From assembly GCA_030614005.1 (NCBI GenBank), contig JAUWKS010000015.1:1-32000 (forward strand): DNA of 32,000 nt. The letters are read 5' to 3'. Below are positions 3,095 to 27,520 of this stretch, in pieces (position 1 is the stretch's first letter; the number at the start of each line of letters is the position of its first letter). The notes beneath the pieces were generated by a model. That model saw only the letters and a list, made by a program, of their open reading frames with translations. It was not told the DNA's origin and ran no database searches. The DNA comes from Candidatus Heimdallarchaeota archaeon (GTDB lineage: Archaea; Asgardarchaeota; Heimdallarchaeia; JABLTI01). The position numbers were made by a program, and so were the translations under genes.

Positions 3095-3577
3095 TCATCG
3101 TCTTCTTTTTGTTTTAAATTTCTTTGCCAATTTTTCCCAAAATGGATGTTTGTGTAATTTCACATCTCCAACAGCTTTTCTTGGTACAATGTCTAACTCG
3201 AGTAAATCTTGATCAAATTCATTGAAAATTGAAGTATCAATTACTATATTATCAATTTTATTTGCATATTTCTCAAGGAAAATGCGATGTGTATCATTAA
3301 GTTGTTTCGTGATTTTTTCGCTGTTCTCTTCAATAGGGTTTGCAAAAACGAATATTAGTTCATTTTCTTCATCAACTTTAAAATTCAGTTTTAAGTTTTG
3401 GAAGAGAACTGATTGTATTCCCTGCTGACCAAACGATTCTTTGGAGAATGAATAGAGTGCCGCAAGAAAACCGCTCTGAAGTGCATGATCTGGATGCATT
3501 TTGCACGTTTTTCCGCCATAACACTTTGAGAATAGTGGTACTCCGGATGTTTTCAATATAATTACGTCATCAGCCAT
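3095..3577 (-). CDS. Longin-domain protein (Mon1/Fuz-longin-like)
   Basis: VIILKTSGVPLFSK...LQSGFLAALYSFSKE...LIFVF pattern of the longin beta-beta-alpha fold; ATG at 3577 (MADD). Confidence 0.8.
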   Translation of the reverse strand: MADDVIILKTSGVPLFSKCYGGKTCKMHPDHALQSGFLAALYSFSKESFGQQGIQSVLFQNLKLNFKVDEENELIFVFANPIEENSEKITKQLNDTHRIFLEKYANKIDNIVIDTSIFNEFDQDLLELDIVPRKAVGDVKLHKHPFWEKLAKKFKTKRRR

Positions 3578-3664
3578 TTTCTCATCATTCCTTTTTTTGT
3601 ATACATTAATTATTATCATTAATTAGAATTAGCATTTCTTTCAAAGAGCTAGATATGAATTTGT

Positions 3665-5323
3665 CTAAATCAAATATCGTCCACACTTTACGCAATAATG
3701 TTTGTTGTATTGTCGTATATATTTCGCATCGTCACCACAAATTGGACACTTGCTTTTCTTTTCAGTTTTTGTTGTACTTAAATGTTGACCAATCTGAGGT
3801 TCAGATGATTTTGTTTCATCCTCAGTCATATCTTTCAATTCAGAGATCATAGCACTTGAAAGTTCAGTTCCGATTACACTATCATCAGTAGGAACATGTT
3901 CATCTTCCTGAATTGGTATTAATGGTTCCTCTTCAATTATATCTACCAAATCGTTTTCTGGTATATCAACAAGTTCTTCTAATTCATCTATTGGAGTAGT
4001 AATGCTATCTTGAATAGTAATTTCCTCTGTTTCTGCTTGTGATGAAGAATCTTCATCAAAATCTAATAAACTCTCCAATACTTTTTGATCATCATCCAAT
4101 TTAGATTCATCAAGTGGAACCTCTTGGATTTCTTCGATGATCTTTTCTTCAATTATTTCTTCTGGTTCATCTATTTCAACTTGATCAATAACATTGTCCA
4201 TATCATCTGCATCACTTACCACAGATTCATCAATTGAAGCCAATACATCTAAATCATCTCTCATATCGCCTATAGTGTCTTCAATTTCCACTTTTTCTTC
4301 CTCTGTTTTTAGCCCATTTACTTTTACGTTTGTTATCTCTTCTTCCAAATCTTTTAATCTTGATGTCAAACTATCTAGTTGGAAATTAATTGAATTTAAT
4401 ACCCGTTCAAGTTCAGGTGTAATTAGAGGTTCAACTTCTTCTTGCTCGACTTTTTTACCTTTGATTGAATTCTTTGGAACAGTAATAACTCGTTCCCCAT
4501 CATCGGTTTTTTCTCGACCAATTATTATATCATTCGTTTCATCCAAAACAGACATGACTTCTTCGATTAGTTTTTCTGTTTCTTCATCATCCCTACCAAC
4601 CATTACTGATTTCTTGATTGGTTTTTCTTCTTTTTCTTCATCAAATGTTGAAACGATTATCATTGGCTCTATCAATGATTTTTCGGGCACGCTTGACTTC
4701 TCTTCAATGACTTCTGCTTTCTGCTTTATTGGAGCAACATCAATTGCATCTTCTACAGCTTTTACTGGTGTTATTCCCTCTCTTTCAAGTAAGCATTTAG
4801 CCATTAAATCAAAAGCAATGTCAATATTTTCTCCTGTTAAGGCTGAAGTTTCTATATATGCGCATTGTAGTCCAGAACTTTCCTTGAGGGCACTTGCAAA
4901 CTGCTCTCCAGTTTCTCTAGATATAACCCTCTTTCCTTTCAAATCAATTTTATTTGCACAAACAATAAAGATTTCAATTGTTCCATTTGAATACCTTATT
5001 GCTTCGTCTACCCAGGTTGATATACTATTAAGTGAATTGGAATTTGTAACATCAAATACTAGAAAACAAGCTGTTGCGCCACCATAAAAACTTGAACGAA
5101 TATATTTGTACTTGTCTTGTCCTGCGAGATCCCAAATTTGGAAAGAAGTCAAAAGGTTTCCAATTCTCGCTTTATAAGAGGAAAAATCAGCACCAACTGT
5201 AGAAATATATTCTTCTGCAAAATGTTCACCCATTGCTCTTTTCCTAATTGTAGTTTTACCTACAAAAGAGTCACCTGTAAGTACTATTTTCCAAAGGAAA
5301 TCAGCTTGTTTTTTATTTATCAT
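3665..5323 (-). CDS. Rab-like small GTPase fused to a long acidic linker and a C-terminal Zn ribbon
   Basis: G1 GDSFVGKT, G2/RabF1-like TVGADF, G3 FQIWDLAGQ, FYGGA, LVFDVTN, G4 NKID, G5 ETSA; roughly 330-aa D/E-rich region; CPIC...YCVKC at the C-terminus. Confidence 0.9.
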   Translation of the reverse strand: MINKKQADFLWKIVLTGDSFVGKTTIRKRAMGEHFAEEYISTVGADFSSYKARIGNLLTSFQIWDLAGQDKYKYIRSSFYGGATACFLVFDVTNSNSLNSISTWVDEAIRYSNGTIEIFIVCANKIDLKGKRVISRETGEQFASALKESSGLQCAYIETSALTGENIDIAFDLMAKCLLEREGITPVKAVEDAIDVAPIKQKAEVIEEKSSVPEKSLIEPMIIVSTFDEEKEEKPIKKSVMVGRDDEETEKLIEEVMSVLDETNDIIIGREKTDDGERVITVPKNSIKGKKVEQEEVEPLITPELERVLNSINFQLDSLTSRLKDLEEEITNVKVNGLKTEEEKVEIEDTIGDMRDDLDVLASIDESVVSDADDMDNVIDQVEIDEPEEIIEEKIIEEIQEVPLDESKLDDDQKVLESLLDFDEDSSSQAETEEITIQDSITTPIDELEELVDIPENDLVDIIEEEPLIPIQEDEHVPTDDSVIGTELSSAMISELKDMTEDETKSSEPQIGQHLSTTKTEKKSKCPICGDDAKYIRQYNKHYCVKCGRYLI

Positions 5324-5701
5324 TCTTTTTGTATCCCTTTATTTTATTCTCAAATGCTTTTGACAACAGTATTAATTATTTATTTCCTACGTTCTTTACT
5401 TTTTCGCTAAGATTAGCAGATTTTTATTGAAAAAGCAAATTTTTCTAATCTCAAATGATTTTTTTGTTCAGTATTGTTGGTCTTAACACATAGCTAAGGG
5501 CAATATCCAAATATTACAATCCCTTATTTTCAATAAATTCGTTCTTAATCATATAGAGGATATTACAAAGTAAAATCCTATTCGAATAAACGGCGTTTAC
5601 TTGTTATAAATTTAAGGTAAGCACCCATTTCCTCAAAGAATCTTTGGTGGAAGTATCTCCATAGAAACAGAAACAAAAAAATCTTGAGTGTGAATTGAAA
5701 G

Positions 5702-7183
5702 TTGGGTTATGATCCTAATAGACGTTGCATGAAATGCGGCAAAAGGAATGGTTTTCTATATTATTGTGAGGATTGTGGTGGCTCTTTCTGTAATGATTGT
5801 ATAGTTTCTGAAAAAACGGAATGTACATTTTGTAACGACTGTGCACATATTAGTGTAGGAAGCAAATGTGAAAAGTGTGGAAAAACCAATCAATTAACTG
5901 CTGCTAAAAGATATTTAAGGAAATGCCCCGGTTGTTCTTCTATAAGAATAAAAGATATCCCTAAGAAAATAGCTGGTCTCTCTTCTGAATATATTGAAGC
6001 GATTAATATCATTTATAGTGGTTTAGACATCATCCGTAATTTTGCTAGCAGTTTTTCAGAAGTTGTCAATCAAGCAAAATTCCTTCGTCGGGAAAGATTT
6101 GGCCTTTATCCTAATATTGAAAATAATTTAATACGTATTCAAGGTCAATTTTACGAAATTACTCAGCGTGCTATGGGACTCATTGATAAAGTCTATAAGC
6201 AAATTTTAAATGATGCCCGTTTGCTCCGATTTAATCATCGAGTAACTATTGATCAGCTTCCCAAAATAGATCGTGTGCTAAAAACGATCAAATATAATAC
6301 TCAAGGTTATTCTAATCTGATTAATGATTTTCTAAATGAAGCAAAAACAGAACTTGCTGATGTGAGAGAGCTCGTCAGCGAATTAAGAAATTACACTACT
6401 TATTTCGACGAAGTTTCAGATAAATTTGAACCTGAAATGCTCGAATTGAAAATCGCTGCAATACCAAATGTAAAAGTAACGCTACCGGACAATGGACGTA
6501 AAAGAAGAGGTACAATTTTCTTAACAAATAAGCATCTTTATTTCCTTCCAAATTTCAAATTTATTTTCCGTTTCCATGGAAAAATAAGAGCCATTCCTAT
6601 TTCGATGATACGAGAAGTTGAAACTAAAGAAAGAAAATTATTTAGCTCTTACTTAATGATCAATAGTCCTGATAGAAAATCAATGAAAATTCACTGTTCT
6701 AGAACGGAATTGGATCAGCTTAATTTTCTCTTTGGTGTTCTTTTCAATGAAAATGAAGGATATATTATTTCAGATCCATACTTTATCGAAGAACTAAGAA
6801 CTACTCTAGATTTCAGTGTTCTTCGAGAAAAAGTTGAACGCCGTATTAAAGATTTGAAACAGATACCATTTACTCAAATCGTCCAACAACAACATCAACA
6901 AAATATTTGGCAAAGAGGACCTATTGTTAACGTTAATGTAGAAAGCAATGAAACTAAACAACTAAGAATTAAGCTTAGAGCAGCAAGGGACACCCTTAGC
7001 CAATTAGAGAAAGCTTTTGAGGATCGAAGTATAACTCCGGAAATCTATTTCTCACGGTTGGAAAAGACTCGAGAGAAAATAATTTCCTTAGAAGAAAAAT
7101 TGAAAGATATTATGCGAATAAATACTGGTTACCAACAACACCAGCAACCAAATTTTTCTGATTTTCTAAGGAATGTAAGATAA
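5702..7183 (+). CDS. Multidomain protein: Cys-rich Zn fingers, helical/coiled coil, GRAM/GLUE-like PH domain, steadiness-box-like C-terminus
   Basis: Six CxxC pairs in the first ~80 aa (CMKC, CEDCGGSFCNDC, CNDC, CEKC, CPGC); GTIFLTNKHLYF; AARDTLSQLEKAFEDRSITPEIYFSRLEKTREK. TTG start. Confidence 0.6.
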   Translation: MGYDPNRRCMKCGKRNGFLYYCEDCGGSFCNDCIVSEKTECTFCNDCAHISVGSKCEKCGKTNQLTAAKRYLRKCPGCSSIRIKDIPKKIAGLSSEYIEAINIIYSGLDIIRNFASSFSEVVNQAKFLRRERFGLYPNIENNLIRIQGQFYEITQRAMGLIDKVYKQILNDARLLRFNHRVTIDQLPKIDRVLKTIKYNTQGYSNLINDFLNEAKTELADVRELVSELRNYTTYFDEVSDKFEPEMLELKIAAIPNVKVTLPDNGRKRRGTIFLTNKHLYFLPNFKFIFRFHGKIRAIPISMIREVETKERKLFSSYLMINSPDRKSMKIHCSRTELDQLNFLFGVLFNENEGYIISDPYFIEELRTTLDFSVLREKVERRIKDLKQIPFTQIVQQQHQQNIWQRGPIVNVNVESNETKQLRIKLRAARDTLSQLEKAFEDRSITPEIYFSRLEKTREKIISLEEKLKDIMRINTGYQQHQQPNFSDFLRNVR

Positions 7184-7326
7184 TTTACTCAATTAAAGCA
7201 AAATAAACAAAAAAGCATTTAAGATAAAAAATTTACACCAACCTAAACTTTAAATTGAGACAAAAAGTACTTTAGCATAAAACTAATAACCAAAACAAGC
7301 AAATGCTTTCAATGAGGTTCTAAACA

Positions 7327-7890
7327 TTGCGCAAGGATAGTCAGGGCAGAATTCACTTAAAAATTGTCTTCTACGGACCCTCCCTTAGTGGGAAAACAAC
7401 TGGATTACGATGGCTCTACGACCAAGTAGAAGGACTAACGAAAGGTGGTTTTACTTCAATTGCTGACCCCACTGGTAGAACACTCTATTTTGATTTTACA
7501 CCCTTTTCAGCTTCTGGAAGAGTAATTTTAGATGCTTATACAGTTGCTGGGCAAACAAGGCACAAAAGTCAAAGAAAAGTGATTTTAAGAGGAGTAGATG
7601 GAATAATTCTCATGCTTGATTCCACACCAGAAATGCAGAAATTTAATCAAGAATCTGTGGATGAATTACAAGAATTTCTTGGGGATCGATTTGGTACTGA
7701 AGTACCAATTGTTATATCATTAAATAAACGAGATGTACCTGGTGCTTTAACTCGTCCTGAAATGCTTTCAGGGTTAGAATTAGAGGGCTACCCTGTTTAT
7801 GAAACCATTGCAACTAAAGGTATTGGTATCAAAAGGGCATTTCAATCTATTGCAAGAGAAATTCTCTTAAAACAATTATATGGAAAATAG
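7327..7890 (+). CDS. mglA: MglA-like small GTPase
   Basis: KIVFYGPSLSGKTT, RTLYFDF, YTVAGQ, RKVILRGVDG, NKRD, ETIA are collinear with Myxococcus MglA motifs; TTG start. Confidence 0.85.
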   Translation: MRKDSQGRIHLKIVFYGPSLSGKTTGLRWLYDQVEGLTKGGFTSIADPTGRTLYFDFTPFSASGRVILDAYTVAGQTRHKSQRKVILRGVDGIILMLDSTPEMQKFNQESVDELQEFLGDRFGTEVPIVISLNKRDVPGALTRPEMLSGLELEGYPVYETIATKGIGIKRAFQSIAREILLKQLYGK

Positions 7891-8004: not shown

Positions 8005-8487
8005 TTGACTAAACCTTTGAAAGTGAAAGTAGGTGATAAAGCCCCATTATTCTGTTTACTTGATAAAGATGAAAATGAAATTTGTCTTAAGAATTTCATA
8101 GGAAAATGGGTTATATTGTATTTTTATCCAAAAGATAATACAAAAGGTTGTACGATTGAAGCAATCGATTTTACAGCACAATTAAGTGACTTTTCCAAAT
8201 TAGGAGCAGTTGTTTTAGGCATTAGTCCTGATTCAGTTTCAAGTCACCAAAAATTCACTGATAAACACGAATTAAAAGTACAATTACTTAGTGATACTGA
8301 ACACATTGTTCTTGAAAAATATGGTATTTGGCAAGAAAAATCTATGTATGGCAGAACTTACTTTGGCGTTGTTAGGAGTACTATATTACTTAATCCAGAA
8401 GGAAGAATTGCTGAAGTTTGGGAAAAAGTTCGTGTAACAAATCACGTCGAAAATGTGAAAAACAGATTAATCGAGTTGCAACAGTAA
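8005..8487 (+). CDS. bcp: Thioredoxin-dependent peroxiredoxin (BCP/PrxQ)
   Basis: YFYPKDNTKGCTIEA peroxidatic motif, GISPDS, RSTILL. Probable TTG start at 8005 after SD-like AGGTGA; the ORF track starts at GTG 7996. Confidence 0.93.
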   Translation: MTKPLKVKVGDKAPLFCLLDKDENEICLKNFIGKWVILYFYPKDNTKGCTIEAIDFTAQLSDFSKLGAVVLGISPDSVSSHQKFTDKHELKVQLLSDTEHIVLEKYGIWQEKSMYGRTYFGVVRSTILLNPEGRIAEVWEKVRVTNHVENVKNRLIELQQ

Positions 8488-8546
8488 GTTGTGATTTTCT
8501 TTCTCATTCACGTTCTTCGTATATTTATTTCAGAAGATGGTAAAAC

Positions 8547-10670
8547 ATGTCAAAAAAGCAACAAGGTTCACATAAAAATGAAAAAATTAATCATCTAATT
8601 AATGAAAAAAGTCCGTACTTACTTCAACATGCCACTAATCCCGTTGATTGGTATCCTTGGGGTGAAGAAGCTTTTGAAAAGGCACGTAAAGAAGATAAGC
8701 CAATATTTCTTTCCATAGGATATTCTACATGTCATTGGTGCCATGTTATGGCGCATGAATCTTTTGAGGACCTAGAAGTTGCTAAATTAATGAATGAAAC
8801 TTTTATTTCTATTAAGGTTGATCGGGAAGAACGGCCTGAAATTGATAGTCTCTACATGTCTGTTTGCCAAATGTTAACAGGGAGTGGTGGATGGCCATTA
8901 ACAATTATTATGGATGCAGATAAGCGACCATTTACCGCAGGTACCTATTTTCCAAAACAAAGTCGATATGGCCGTATTGGTATGATGGAATTAATTCCTC
9001 GTATTCAAAATTTCTGGAAAAACCAACGAGCTTCACTTGAAGCTTCTGCAAAGGAAGTTATTGAACAATTACAACAAATGGAATATACACCTGGCAATGA
9101 ATTTACTATTGATATATTGGACGAAGCTTTCAAAGAAGCCTCTATGCTTTTTGATGAAAAACTAGGTGGATTTAAGGGAGCGCCAAAATTCCCAACACCA
9201 CATAAATTGCTATTTCTTCTCCGGTATTGGAAAAGAACTGACAATGAACAAGCTTTAGTGATGGTAGAAAAGACTCTTCAAGCAATGCGCAATGGAGGAA
9301 TTTTCGATCACATAGGATTTGGTTTTCATCGCTATTCCACAGATTCTTCTTGGTTATTACCACATTTTGAAAAAATGCTTTATGATCAAGCACTTTTAGC
9401 TATTGCTTACATTGAAACATATCAGGCAACAAAAAATAAATATTATCAGAATGTTGCTGAAGAAATTCTTACTTATGTTTTACGTGATATGACCTCCTCT
9501 CTTGGAGGGTTTTATTCTGCAGAAGATGCTGATAGTGAGGGAGAAGAAGGCATATTTTACACTTGGTCCACAGACGAAGTTAAAAAAGTTCTAGACGAAG
9601 AAGATAGTTCACTATTTCTTAAAGTGTATAATTTTGAACAAAGTGGAAATTTCTATGATCAAGCTACTCAAGAGAAAACAGGCACTAATATTCCCCATCT
9701 GAAAAATTCGATAGAGAAATTATCTAATGAATTATCGGTTCCTTTTACTGAACTAAATTCACGATTAGAAGGAATTCGAGACAAACTGTTCTCAATTCGC
9801 AAGGGTCGCATTCACCCTCACAAAGATGATAAGATTCTGACTGATTGGAACGGCTTAATGATAGCTGCTCTTGCTATAGCAGGAAGAGTTTTTGAAGAGA
9901 AAAAATTTAGCATCGCAGCTCAAAATGCAGCAGATTTTATCCTTGAGAATATGTTAGCAGAAAACAATCGTTTAAACCATAGATTTAGAGATGGAGAAAT
10001 TGCTATTCAAGGGATGGTTAATGATTATGCATTTCTTATTTGGGGACTTTTGGAATTATACCAGACCACTTTTAATGAGAGTTATCTTAAATATGCCATT
10101 TCACTCAATACCTCATTACTAGAGCATTTTTGGGATGAAAAAGATGGAGCATTGTTCTTTACACCTGATGATGGTGAGCAACTTCTCATCCGCAAAAAGG
10201 AAATTTATGACGGAGCAATTCCTTCTGGAAATTCGGTTTCAATGTTGAATTTCATAAGAATTGGTAGAATTACTGGTAACGTAGAATTAGAGGAAAAAGT
10301 ATCACAAATAAATAAAGCGTTTTCGAAAGTAATTGAACAAGCCCTATCTGCTCATACAATGTTTCTAAGTGCTTTAGAATACATATATGGTTCTTCATTT
10401 GAAGTGGTTATTGTTGGAAAATCTGATTCAAATGATACCAATGAAATGTTGAAAGCAATTCATTCCAATTTTATTCCAAATAAAGTTGTTTTATTTGTAC
10501 CAATGGAGGAACAATCTTCAGAGATATCTAAAATCACCGATTTTGTACATTATAAAGAGAGTATTGATAATAAAGCAACAGCACATGTTTGTATAAATCG
10601 CTTTTGCAAATTTCCCACAACAGAAATTAACATGATGCTCAAATTTCTAAAAATTTGTAGTAAAAACTGA
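8547..10670 (+). CDS. Thioredoxin-domain/six-hairpin protein (YyaL/SSP411/SPATA20 family)
   Basis: [58 protein letters not shown]. Confidence 0.95.
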
Positions 10671-12127: not shown

Positions 12128-12348
12128 CTAATTAGCGTTATTCCAATCCTCTTCCATTTTTCTCAGAAAATCATCTGATTTATTAGTGATTTCGAAGTAT
12201 TACTCAATCATTTGTATTATAAAATAAACTGCTAACTTTTAGTAAAACTTCTGTTTATGTATAGCTAAAGCTAATAATAATTAGTTTGTACAGAAGGAGG
12301 CAATTTTTCTTGACTGAAAATGAAGACGCTTGTGAAATAGTATCTAAA

Positions 12349-12735
12349 ATGAAACTAACATTGACCACTGGTAAAAAATGGGGCAGTTCAACTGATGATC
12401 CCGTTAAAGTATTCATTGGAGAACACTCCTGGGAACTTACCCATCCATATTGTGATGATTTTGAAAAAGGCAAAACCGATGTTTTTAATCTTGATATACC
12501 TGAAGGTTTGACTTCTGATTGGTTTCAATATTTCTGCTTTAAGAAAGAACACCCAATTATGGGTGATAAATGGTTGTTAACTGGTGTTAAATTGGAAATT
12601 AATGATAGAGTTATCTATGATTCGGGTGAAATTAAAATTTGGTTTGAAGGTGGGAAAACACAATGGTGCATTCCTGACTTAAATTATGGCAAATGTCGAG
12701 GCAATGTTAGCCCTGATTTTAATGTTAGCCATTAA
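12349..12735 (+). CDS. Stand-alone PLAT/LH2-domain protein
   Basis: LTLTTGKKWGSSTDDPVKVFIG, DDFEKGKTDVF, DKWLLTGVKL match the PLAT pattern (V.TG...AGTD..V; FE.G..D.F; W.L..V). ATG at 12349; the track starts at TTG 12286. Confidence 0.7.
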   Translation: MKLTLTTGKKWGSSTDDPVKVFIGEHSWELTHPYCDDFEKGKTDVFNLDIPEGLTSDWFQYFCFKKEHPIMGDKWLLTGVKLEINDRVIYDSGEIKIWFEGGKTQWCIPDLNYGKCRGNVSPDFNVSH

Positions 12736-18048: not shown

Positions 18049-18831
18049 ATGGAACCTTGGCTTATTACAATTATTGTTTTAGTGATTGTTACATTTGGTG
18101 TTCTTATCCTCTTATTATTAGGAGGAATTAAGATTGCTTTGGAATATGAACGAATAGTTATTTTTCGTTTAGGAAGATATGTTCGAACTATCGGACCCGG
18201 TATGGTTTATATTACTCCATTCCTTGAAAAAGGTCGAAAAGTCGACATGCGAATAATTACACAAGATATCCCTCGTCAAGAAGTTATTACTCGAGACAAT
18301 ATCCCTGTATTAGCTAATACCGTTGTCTACTTTAAAGTTGAAAATCCACAAGATGCTATTATTAAAATTGAAAATTATGTGTATGCAGTCAGACAATACA
18401 CACAAGCAGCATTGAGAGATACTGTTGGTATTATGGAATTAGACCAAGTGCTAACTGAACGTGATAGGATCGCTGAGGATATTAGAGAAATTGTCGATAA
18501 AGAAACAAATGAATGGGGAATTGATATTAAAGCTATCAAAATCCAAGAACTTGAATTACCTGCAGAAATGAAAAGAGCGTTTGCAATGCAAGCAGAAGCA
18601 GAAAGAGAAAAACGAGCAATAATCATTAAAGCTGAAGGAGAAATGATCGCTTCCAAAAAGTTTGCTGCTGCTGCAAGAGAAATGGCGACTGCACCAGGCT
18701 CTCTTCAATTAAGAACATTGCAGACAATAAGAGATATAGCTCAAGATCCCAGTGAAAAAATCGTTATCTTTATGCCAAACGATCTATCGGATGTAGCTTC
18801 AAAAGTCATTAGAAGAACTACTAAGAAATAG
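18049..18831 (+). CDS. SPFH/band-7 stomatin-like membrane protein
   Basis: N-terminal TM helix, EYERIVIFRLGR, QEVITRDN, QAEAEREKRA, LQLRTLQT. Confidence 0.95.
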   Translation: MEPWLITIIVLVIVTFGVLILLLLGGIKIALEYERIVIFRLGRYVRTIGPGMVYITPFLEKGRKVDMRIITQDIPRQEVITRDNIPVLANTVVYFKVENPQDAIIKIENYVYAVRQYTQAALRDTVGIMELDQVLTERDRIAEDIREIVDKETNEWGIDIKAIKIQELELPAEMKRAFAMQAEAEREKRAIIIKAEGEMIASKKFAAAAREMATAPGSLQLRTLQTIRDIAQDPSEKIVIFMPNDLSDVASKVIRRTTKK

Positions 18832-19791: not shown

Positions 19792-20466
19792 TCAAAGAAT
19801 TAATTCTTTATCAATCAATTTTTTACATTCTTTTTGAGCTTTTGTTAATAAAATGCCTGTTTTAATCTTATTATCTTCATTTTTGTAAAATCCATAGTCG
19901 ATTGTTTTCTTAATTCGTCTGCTAAATTTAGAGTTGTTGTTAATCAATGGTAAAAATCTATTTACATACCAATAGACATAGTTTTGTATCTTTTGAAAAC
20001 CTGGGAAAGAAACAACTGGTTTTTTATAAAAATCTTTAATCCATAAGAAGTTAGTTTTTGAATCATTTTTCAAAAGATTTTCATAGATAAACAAATCTAA
20101 TCCAACTTCTCGTCCAAGATGTATTTTTGCTGTACTGAAATAACGTCTTACTCCTTCACCCTTAATTATCTTAGGGCACAATGGACCATTATCTAGAAAG
20201 AATGGGTTTTCATGGATTAGTTCATCACATAATAAATGCAATTTCCACCCCAACGCATATGCCTTGCCTCTTTGACTCTCTTTATTGTAAAACAATAATG
20301 GTGGAATTTCCTGATGGTCGAAAATTTTTAGCTTCGGAGAAAAAAGTTGAAAATACCCTGCATCTGGGCTCCAACTTCCAACAATCATTGGTTTTATTAC
20401 CTCTTCCAGAGGTAATCCTTCTGGCAATACATTCAAAATTGAAAACATATGTGCAAGAAAGTACAT
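19792..20466 (-). CDS. Zinc-dependent phospholipase C-like (Zn_dep_PLPC) protein
   Basis: N-terminal AH, GSWSPDA, YALGWKLHLLCDELIH metal-ligand pattern. Confidence 0.6.
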   Translation of the reverse strand: MYFLAHMFSILNVLPEGLPLEEVIKPMIVGSWSPDAGYFQLFSPKLKIFDHQEIPPLLFYNKESQRGKAYALGWKLHLLCDELIHENPFFLDNGPLCPKIIKGEGVRRYFSTAKIHLGREVGLDLFIYENLLKNDSKTNFLWIKDFYKKPVVSFPGFQKIQNYVYWYVNRFLPLINNNSKFSRRIKKTIDYGFYKNEDNKIKTGILLTKAQKECKKLIDKELIL

Positions 20467-24041: not shown

Positions 24042-24836
24042 TTAAAGGTAAAAGTTCTCTATGATGTTTCCATCAAATTCTTGTGGAAGATCTTTTCTAT
24101 CATATGGATAAATGGATACTGCGTAATCGAAGATATCTTCCATTGAAACGCTAAAGCTACCACCATAGTATTCTTGCCAAGCGATTTCTAAGAAGAAGTA
24201 TGTCCATGCACCATTTAATCCTGGTGTATAATCATAACCGTATCCTCTGTCAGTACAAGTTACTGCCATGTAGCCATTTGCGCTATTGGCATTACTCATT
24301 ACTCCGTTCATTCCACCTGCATTACAATGGTCTAAGAATATGAACCATTTGCAAACTGCACCATCAAAAACTGGTTGTAATTCAGCATCGAAGATGTATC
24401 CATCTTCACCATTTTCGCCTACAGTACAATCCCACATACACAAGAATGAGTTTCTTACTCTACCTCTAGTAGCTCCACCATGTCCACTTGTTGCAAATAT
24501 AACAATATCATCTTCGTCAGCAATGCTAAGGTAATAGGCTAATGCATTATAGACATTTGTTTCTGTAGCTAACCCATCATATTGTGGATAAGTGTTAGTG
24601 TGATCACCTAGAACTGTACATATGTAACCGTTTGGTGCCAATTGATTATACCAATCTGTTGCGTCTTCATCACAGTAAGATAAATCGCTTATTGCGCTAT
24701 AATCTGAAATTCCGACAATAACAGCATATTTGTTTACAATCCCATCTTCAGCTGAAACACTAACTGCTAATGGAATAACAGTAGAGATAATGAATACTGA
24801 AATGAGAACTATACCGATAGTTAGTCTTTTCTTCAT
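24042..24836 (-). CDS. Caspase-family (C14, ortho/metacaspase-like) peptidase with N-terminal signal/anchor
   Basis: KYAVIVGISDY, DLSYCDEDA, catalytic SGHG and FLDHCN, NGAWTYFFL. Start MKKRL at 24836, followed by a hydrophobic helix. Confidence 0.85.
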   Translation of the reverse strand: MKKRLTIGIVLISVFIISTVIPLAVSVSAEDGIVNKYAVIVGISDYSAISDLSYCDEDATDWYNQLAPNGYICTVLGDHTNTYPQYDGLATETNVYNALAYYLSIADEDDIVIFATSGHGGATRGRVRNSFLCMWDCTVGENGEDGYIFDAELQPVFDGAVCKWFIFLDHCNAGGMNGVMSNANSANGYMAVTCTDRGYGYDYTPGLNGAWTYFFLEIAWQEYYGGSFSVSMEDIFDYAVSIYPYDRKDLPQEFDGNIIENFYL

Positions 24837-26689: not shown

Positions 26690-27520
26690 TTAACTCATTA
26701 ATATTTTAGTTGTTATGAATACAGCTTTTTCTGTATCTTTACGTGAAGGGCGGTAATTCTCGTGATCGATTCTATTTAATATGAGATTAACAAATTTGAA
26801 ATCTTTCAAAGCTTCTAATCCCTTAGCAGCTCCTTTGTCGATTAACATACCAAGTGTTAATTGTTCATCAAACATACCCATTCTTACTCTTAATTCAGCT
26901 TCTACACTATGAGCACATTCTTTTATACATTCACGAAAATTTCCTTCATCAAGTAACAATTCATAAGTTGTTTTTGTTGGAAGATCTATTTTCTCCTTAG
27001 GGGGGACATCTTTTGGTTTGCGTGGTTGAGGGGAGGGAGGAGGTATATCACCAGCTTTCTTTGGTTTATCCTGTGGACCATCTTCACCTCTCATCATTTT
27101 AGCAGTCATATCATCTGATGGAGGAGGGGGTGGAGGAGGAGTTTTATCTTTAGGAGGAGGAGGTAATGGTACATGTTTTTTTTCGGAAGGAGGGGGAGGA
27201 AGAGGAGGTTTATCCTTTGAAGGAGATGGTCGACTACCTGCCTTTGGTGTGCTTGGTAAATCCTTAGCTAAATCTATATCGGCCGGTGGACCTGAAATGA
27301 GAATTTTAATCTCTTTTGCACGTTTAATATACTCCTTTGCTTTTACATAATAACTATCACGTATTTTTCGTGTTTTTTCCATGGCAATTAGCTGATTCAA
27401 GAGTTCAGCCGATTCTAAGAATAATTCAAAAGCAGCCGTTAAATCTCCATTTCTTTCAGCGCGTATTGCTTTATTAGCGGTTTTTTTAACACGATCAAAA
27501 AGGTATTTCGTTGGGGACAT
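26690..27520 (-). CDS. MIT domain + proline-rich linker + HEPN/DUF4145-like domain protein
   Basis: KAIRAERNGDLTAAFELFLESAELL...YIKRAKEIK (MIT); PPLPPPP/PPPPPPP runs; GNFRECI..VEAELR..LGMLID..LILNRIDH..SRKDTEKA. Confidence 0.75.
   Translation of the reverse strand: MSPTKYLFDRVKKTANKAIRAERNGDLTAAFELFLESAELLNQLIAMEKTRKIRDSYYVKAKEYIKRAKEIKILISGPPADIDLAKDLPSTPKAGSRPSPSKDKPPLPPPPSEKKHVPLPPPPKDKTPPPPPPPSDDMTAKMMRGEDGPQDKPKKAGDIPPPSPQPRKPKDVPPKEKIDLPTKTTYELLLDEGNFRECIKECAHSVEAELRVRMGMFDEQLTLGMLIDKGAAKGLEALKDFKFVNLILNRIDHENYRPSRKDTEKAVFITTKILMS

Follow-up and report, generated by a model that had tools for sequence, protein, structure and literature searches.

The gene at positions 5702-7183 (+) of the DNA analysed here (a stretch of 32,000 nucleotides of contig JAUWKS010000015.1 from a Candidatus Heimdallarchaeota archaeon, G+C about 33%, hereafter the window) encodes a 493-amino-acid (aa) protein of the Asgard family Znr_CC_PH_SB. 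This Heimdall-group paralogue is very probably a modular adaptor in which a three-zinc module is followed by a helical bundle, then by a PH domain of the GRAM/GLUE type and, beyond a flexible linker, by a steadiness-box (SB) hairpin, and the best explanation overall, which we hold to be reasonably probable, is that it supplies ESCRT-I (ESCRT, endosomal sorting complex that is required for transport) with membrane and cargo binding. The family has been described by Makarova et al. 2024 (mBio, PMC10936438) as the Asgard-specific Znr_CC_PH_SB, which is cog.011556, with three Zn ribbons, a coiled coil, a PH domain and an SB; it was reported to be absent from eukaryotes and probably ancestral in Asgard, and it was called 'a likely ESCRT-I component' whose PH domain is expected to bind the membrane. 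Because this architecture is already in the literature, where it was obtained by computation, the present finding confirms and refines it and does not add a new kind of protein; what is new is the presence of two paralogues in this genome and the placement of the gene studied here in synteny with small GTPase genes. A sequence-only reading made earlier had proposed a chimera of Hrs-, Vps36- and Vps23-like modules in a single protein. All the modules that it named were found where it had placed them, since segments 5720-5940, 6440-6750 and 6955-7110 match the layout of the AlphaFold2 (AF2) model, and its Vps36-like and Vps23-like parts stand, whereas its Hrs/FYVE part is a pattern only. The word 'chimeric' is misleading, as the protein belongs to an old, Asgard-specific and published family and is not a fusion of subunits of the eukaryotic type.

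The open reading frame is a real and conserved gene and not a chance one. Homologues begin with M-G-Y-D-P at the same position as the product of the TTG start, and the codon of Cys9, a residue invariant in the family (55 members), is located upstream of the first ATG in frame; therefore the TTG start is correct. A word-indexed search returned 32 full-length homologues of 46-100% identity, the named ones of which come from Heimdallarchaeota, Thorarchaeota or plain Asgard metagenome-assembled genomes (MAGs). When the search was made exhaustive with phmmer, 72 cluster representatives were obtained at E<=1e-3, among them Loki/Promethearchaeota proteins of 400-830 aa with 20-28% identity. A family match at E<=1e-5 was present in 101 of 200 sampled genomes of the phylum, and ortholog-grade matches (E below 1e-200) in this sample were confined to the window's own genus. 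The PDB searched by sequence with the family profile gave no significant match, the best one (E 0.006) being to NurA over a helical stretch. The AF2 model, made with 28 homologues, had a mean predicted local distance difference test score (pLDDT) of 82 and a predicted template modelling score of 0.66. In this model zinc fingers occupy residues 1-85, four long helices residues 86-237 and a sandwich of seven strands, followed by a C-terminal helix, residues 250-348, and these are followed by a conserved helix (372-390), a disordered linker (394-412) and a helical hairpin (416-476).

The C-terminal hairpin (6947..7129, +) is, as judged from profile comparison, a steadiness box by homology. With Pfam Vps23_core the whole protein reached 13.2 bits and its C-terminal fragment 19.1 bits (E 0.0014), the cut-off of this model being 26.8 bits, and the same model gave only comparable scores with the genome's own UEV-Vps23 (19.7 bits) and Vps28 (18.9 bits). 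The C-terminus of another member, P0041, passes the gathering cut-off (30.3 vs 26.8 bits). When a hairpin profile from 28 close homologues was compared with one made from 45 Asgard Vps23 C-termini the probability was 70%. A wider profile of 42 sequences, which had been gathered with the family's C-terminal hidden Markov model (HMM) alone and without the use of any Vps23 model, gave in hhalign a probability of 95.6% (E 1.3e-8, score 42.6, 53 columns) against the Asgard Vps23 SB and of 91.8% (E 7.5e-7, score 37.4) against the N-terminal hairpin of Vps28. The controls lay far lower, as 60 column-shuffled templates scored 10 +/- 2.3 with a maximum of 17-19 and reversed templates scored 11-13, and in the reverse direction the Vps23-SB HMM matched the C-termini of family members with up to 38.5 bits. 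SHOCT or a generic coiled coil as the sole explanation of the C-terminus was rejected, because none of six C-terminal fragments matched SHOCT at E<=10 and Vps23_core recurred in five of the six; matches to HAUS1, Med9 and similar coiled coils do exist, but they did not recur across members. The likeness to the Vps23 C-terminus that the sequence-only reading had noticed is thus upheld, and its own counter-scenario, in which these helices match only SHOCT or coiled-coil models, is not what was found on the sequence side.

Compared with the hairpins of Vps23/TSG101 and Vps28, the hairpin carries the signature L..L...F.[DG]..I[ST]P..[YF]. The protein as a whole differs from both: unlike the true Vps23 of this genome, which matches both models, it gave no Pfam match to UEV or UQ_con, it has no Vps28 C-terminal bundle, and its hairpin is preceded by a disordered linker and not by a long stalk. 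When hairpin residues 405-480 were co-folded with the Vps28 N-terminal domain (1-105) and the Vps23 SB (180-250), each of the three entered as an alignment, the score was 0.30 and the mark 0.32 in a run made with no controls, and this model result speaks neither for nor against binding.

The PH domain (residues ~241-354, 6422..6763, +) matched PH domains of known structure in VIA with Z 12-13.8 and rmsd (root-mean-square deviation) 2-3 A. The top row was the first DH/PH module of Trio (1nty; Z 13.8, rmsd 2.9 A, 128 residues) and it was followed by Dbs DH/PH (1kz7_A; Z 13.2, rmsd 3.3 A, 131 residues), the GLUE domain of human EAP45/Vps36 (2hth_B; Z 13.1, rmsd 2.8 A, 107 of 129 residues), MTMR2 GRAM-PH (1lw3; Z 13.1, rmsd 2.6 A, 110 residues), BBS5 (6xtb; Z 12.6, rmsd 2.0 A, 101 residues) and Lam6 GRAM (5yqr; Z 12.2, rmsd 3.1 A, 110 residues). 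These six top targets were described as tied within one Z unit, and Foldseek agrees on the PH fold. Set against the GLUE domain of Vps36/EAP45 and the GRAM domains of MTMR2 and Lam6 in particular, the fold is alike (Z 12-13, rmsd 2.6-3.1 A, ~107-111 residues), and the domain carries the strand motif G-x-L-x-L-T-x-x-x-L-x-F. This motif reads GTIFLTNKHLYF at residues 270-281 (nt 6509-6544, +), and in the alignment of 28 homologues G270, T275, N276 and Y280 are invariant; it is preceded by the beta1-beta2 loop GRKRRG, whose basic character is kept in nearly all members. Pfam matches among the 28 homologues were sub-threshold, with GRAM in 18, bPH_3 in 8 and the Vps36 GLUE model in 2. The modelled fold therefore supports a PH domain of the GLUE/GRAM type. 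Since the GLUE match is tied with those to GRAM domains, the Vps36-like character that the sequence-only reading had suggested is supported as a fold subclass, but orthology to Vps36 is not, and the protein further differs from Vps36 in being without the EAP30 winged-helix part (no Pfam EAP30 match) and without an NZF insertion.

At the N-terminus exactly twelve Cys, arranged as six CxxC pairs (C9/C12, C22/C25, C30/C33, C44/C47, C56/C59 and C75/C78), were invariant across 55 diverse members, and from these we infer three zinc sites, the number given for the published family; C41 is an extra Cys that is specific to the subfamily of this protein. The first two sites (C9/C12, C22/C25, C30/C33, C44/C47; 5726..5842, +) have the spacing C-x2-C-x9-C-x2-C-x4-C-x2-C-x10-C-x2-C, which is that of the cross-braced B-box, FYVE, ZZ and AN1 fingers, and the CxxC...CxxCGxxFCxxC spacing that had been read from the sequence is real and runs CxxC-x9-CxxC-x4-CxxC. 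Of the Pfam models zf-B_box matched best and most often, in 49 of the 55 N-termini (best E 1.3e-6), and an ANCHR-like B-box was matched in 27 of them; FYVE was matched below threshold in 19 (best E 4e-4). The third site (C56/C59 ... C75/C78; 5867..5935, +) is a Zn ribbon; its two Cys pairs matched Zn_ribbon_8 in 31 and Zn_Ribbon_TF in 21 of the 55 members, and RNA polymerase subunit P/Rpo12 was matched weakly. When the zinc module was folded alone the pLDDT was 75.5, a wide fold search in VIA was weak (Z<=4.8, with U-box, ZZ, RING and B-box entries in the lead), and Foldseek of the isolated module against the PDB gave no match at E<=0.001. Because these structural matches are weak, a cross-brace in the first two sites, which we consider probable, rests mainly on the spacing and on the Pfam B-box matches. 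Our reading of the module is a double site of the B-box kind together with one Zn ribbon. With the ANCHR B-box and Hrs FYVE fingers it has the Cys spacing in common, while the Pfam matches lie below the cut-offs. The likeness to Hrs goes no further than the Cys spacing: the CxxCGxxFCxxC core is common to this protein and to FYVE, but the R(R/K)HHCR motif by which FYVE binds phosphatidylinositol 3-phosphate is absent, its position reading LYYCED (the missing basic patch had been remarked upon already), FYVE gave no Pfam match for the protein itself at E<=1, the VHS and UIM traits of Hrs/Vps27 gave none either, and B-box is the better Pfam match.

Between the zinc module and the PH domain, as in the published family, lies a helical bundle or coiled coil of four long helices (residues 86-237, 5957..6412, +) that AF2 predicts with pLDDT mostly >90 and that gave no specific fold match. 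Foldseek returned many DH-PH RhoGEF modules with E 1e-5 to 1e-3, but on re-alignment with VIA these were found to rest on the PH domain and the helix that runs into it, and this holds for the two top rows, 1nty and 1kz7_A, as well. When the helical region was included in the alignment the rmsd rose to 6-16 A and Z was no higher than for the PH-only matches, and for this reason the helical part is not read as a DH domain and the RhoGEF reading was not upheld by this re-alignment. Downstream of the PH domain the conserved helix (residues 372-390, 6815..6871, +) is seen both in the alignment and in the AF2 model; it ends in an invariant R-I-K-D-L-K-x-x-P-[FY], a possible docking motif that is no less conserved than the zinc ligands. 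It stands just before the disordered linker (residues 394-412, 6881..6937, +), where pLDDT is below 50 and the alignment columns are variable and poorly conserved.

The connection of this protein to the published family runs through a distant homologue. In the table of Makarova et al. 2024 (PMC10936438), the cog.011556 member of Lokiarchaeum GC14_75 lies between PepD/L35Ae and MetE + Vps20. The distant homologue P0062, from another Loki MAG, lies between C69 peptidase/L35Ae and MetE + Snf7, which is the same locus, and phmmer matched our protein to P0062 with E 1.3e-9; the protein is thereby linked to cog.011556 indirectly, and its own subfamily is a putative part of cog.011556. Compared with the Loki members, it has the same order of domains (three Zn sites, helical region, PH domain and steadiness box), but it is 493 aa long and they are 600-830 aa, and where the published description calls all three sites 'Zn ribbons' the first two look B-box-like here. 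A maximum-likelihood tree of the 69 family members of >=400 aa, from which shorter representatives were left out, has two well-supported halves, one of which unites the Loki cog.011556-type proteins with P0156 and the other the subfamily of our protein with a second Heimdall-type subfamily. Thus, in comparison with Loki cog.011556, the protein belongs to a separate and well-supported clade, and its gene is syntenic with GTPase genes and outside an ESCRT neighbourhood.

The genome carries two paralogues, one from each of the two Heimdall-type subfamilies. The second paralogue (474 aa, contig C107:2194-3615, -) has genes for ATP-synthase c and for Snf7 as neighbours. Its relative P0076, which is 50% identical to it, adjoins Snf7x2-Vps4-Vps25-EAP30-UEV/Vps23/Vps28, and P0156 adjoins Snf7-Vps4-Vps25. 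Location in or near an ESCRT cluster, which is typical of Znr_CC_PH_SB but not strictly defining, is therefore seen in the second paralogue and in relatives and is not seen in the gene studied here. The C-termini of the ESCRT-adjacent paralogue group had no detectable SB similarity (score 10, equal to the null, in a comparison of four sequences with low power), and our protein, unlike this group, has a clear SB; to go by this group, ESCRT linkage and an SB need not occur together. The presumed partners UEV-Vps23, Vps28 and EAP30 are encoded in the genome on contig C1, EAP30 as a separate gene and Vps23 and Vps28 as separate adjacent genes (L011:8813-9565 and 8158-8799), and this supports the ESCRT-I reading. 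On contig C1 the Vps28 gene occupies 24169-24756, and the UEV-Vps23 gene next to it codes for 250 aa. In a related Heimdall-type MAG a UEV-Vps23-Vps28 fusion of at least 471 aa was observed (L016:11272-12638).

How the adaptor would work can be proposed from its domain composition, the homology of its hairpin, the GLUE/GRAM-type fold of its PH domain and the ESCRT linkage of its relatives, and we consider the chances of the following mechanism to be evenly balanced. Through the PH domain, whose beta1-beta2 loop is basic and conserved, the protein would be placed on a membrane. In the ESCRT-I headpiece the hairpin would pack against its homologues from Vps23 and/or Vps28, and we propose for it the position of the third hairpin because Asgard archaea are without Vps37. 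The zinc module would recognise a protein ligand, possibly ubiquitin or cargo. In this way the adaptor would supply ESCRT-I with the membrane and cargo binding that in eukaryotes is given by the Vps36 GLUE domain and ESCRT-0.

Several points weigh against this proposal. No ESCRT gene adjoins the gene or its orthologues in six loci, where GTPase and housekeeping genes are found instead, and the protein falls in a different major clade of the tree from the Loki cog.011556 proteins. All Pfam matches of the protein itself are below the curated cut-offs, its hairpin could serve for self-association, and these archaea are not known to have phosphoinositide lipids. In our literature search the family was covered by one computational paper only, that of Makarova et al. 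2024.

The neighbourhood bears on what else the protein might do. Directly downstream is a gene for an Arf-like small GTPase of 187 aa (7327..7890, +; Pfam Arf E 1.2e-9), and upstream, in divergent orientation, is a gene for a Ras/Rab-like GTPase (3665..5323, -; Pfam Ras E 1e-39) with an acidic linker of ~330 aa and a C-terminal CxxC...CxxC Zn ribbon, after which comes a longin-domain gene (3095-3619, -; Fuz_longin_1 exactly at its cut-off). The pair of the Ras/Rab-like GTPase and longin-domain genes is kept in several related loci. In the intergenic stretches that were read (5324-5701 and 7184-7326) there are A/T-rich TATA-like stretches before the Arf-like gene, and no clear terminator was seen after our gene in 7184-7326. 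It could be argued that the protein is an effector or regulator of the Arf-like and/or Ras-like GTPase, for instance a membrane-bound effector or an exchange factor of DH-PH build, does not act in ESCRT and uses its hairpin only as a device for oligomerisation. The Arf-like gene lies directly 3' of the gene in 6/6 related loci, and this adjacency persists in the two most divergent of them, where the upstream gene differs; the long Ras-like GTPase gene is divergently upstream in 4/6, and the many DH-PH modules in Foldseek point the same way. However, the block as a whole is syntenic, including genes for a pseudouridine synthase, a peroxiredoxin, DUF255 and UDP-glucose dehydrogenase, and because of this the adjacency, which may reflect relatedness only, is a weak sign of a functional link. 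Moreover, members in other clades are not beside Ras-type GTPases, the DH-PH matches come from the PH domain and its lead-in helix with the poor rmsd given above once the helical region is included, and the SB homology is specific, so that we regard a GTPase effector or regulator as quite unlikely.

A scaffold independent of ESCRT, in which the hairpin would only homo-oligomerise and the zinc and PH modules would serve lipid sensing, protein quality control or the like, is likewise unlikely, if a little less so. Hairpins of the SB type occur widely among the multidomain proteins of Asgard archaea (Makarova et al. 2024, PMC10936438), which together with the lack of ESCRT neighbours of this gene and the lack of detectable SB similarity in the ESCRT-adjacent paralogue group is what would be expected of such a scaffold, but the homology to the hairpins of Vps23 and Vps28 clearly exceeds the null and several divergent relatives that carry an SB sit inside ESCRT clusters. 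The GTPase neighbours and the ESCRT-type hairpin could also be brought together in a single reading, in which the protein is a recruiter of ESCRT-I under the control of a switch: the GTP-bound Arf-like (or Ras-like) GTPase would bind its helical/PH part and bring it to a membrane, where its SB would then nucleate ESCRT-I. We regard this as decidedly improbable; if it were true, signalling by small GTPases would have been tied to ESCRT sorting before eukaryotes arose, and the protein would stand in for the missing Vps37, Vps36-GLUE and ESCRT-0.

Elsewhere in the window a 276-aa protein (26690-27520, -) bears an MIT domain at its N-terminus (Pfam E 2.6e-9) and no AAA ATPase, and by its sequence it is possibly another ESCRT-III-binding protein. 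A stand-alone 149-aa protein (12286-12735, +) has a near-threshold PLAT/LH2 match (E 1.6e-4, 22.8 vs 23 bits), and two proteins belong to membrane-acting classes, namely an SPFH/Band-7 protein (18049-18831, +; E 6e-36) and a zinc-dependent phospholipase C-like protein (19792-20466, -; E 8e-8).

Asgard archaea have ESCRT-I and ESCRT-II and lack clear Vps37, Vps36-GLUE and ESCRT-0, and this raises the question by what means membranes and cargo are located by their ESCRT machinery. Asgards have been reported to be without clear homologues of Vps37 and Vps36 (Hatano et al. 2022), and it is for this reason that the Znr_CC_PH_SB family is attractive as the missing membrane or third-hairpin element; judged by its domains it would be an obvious candidate for finding the membranes and cargo. 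The Heimdall-group genome, with one paralogue by ESCRT-III, one by small GTPases, and separate Vps23 and Vps28, offers a simple system in which this role may be tested.

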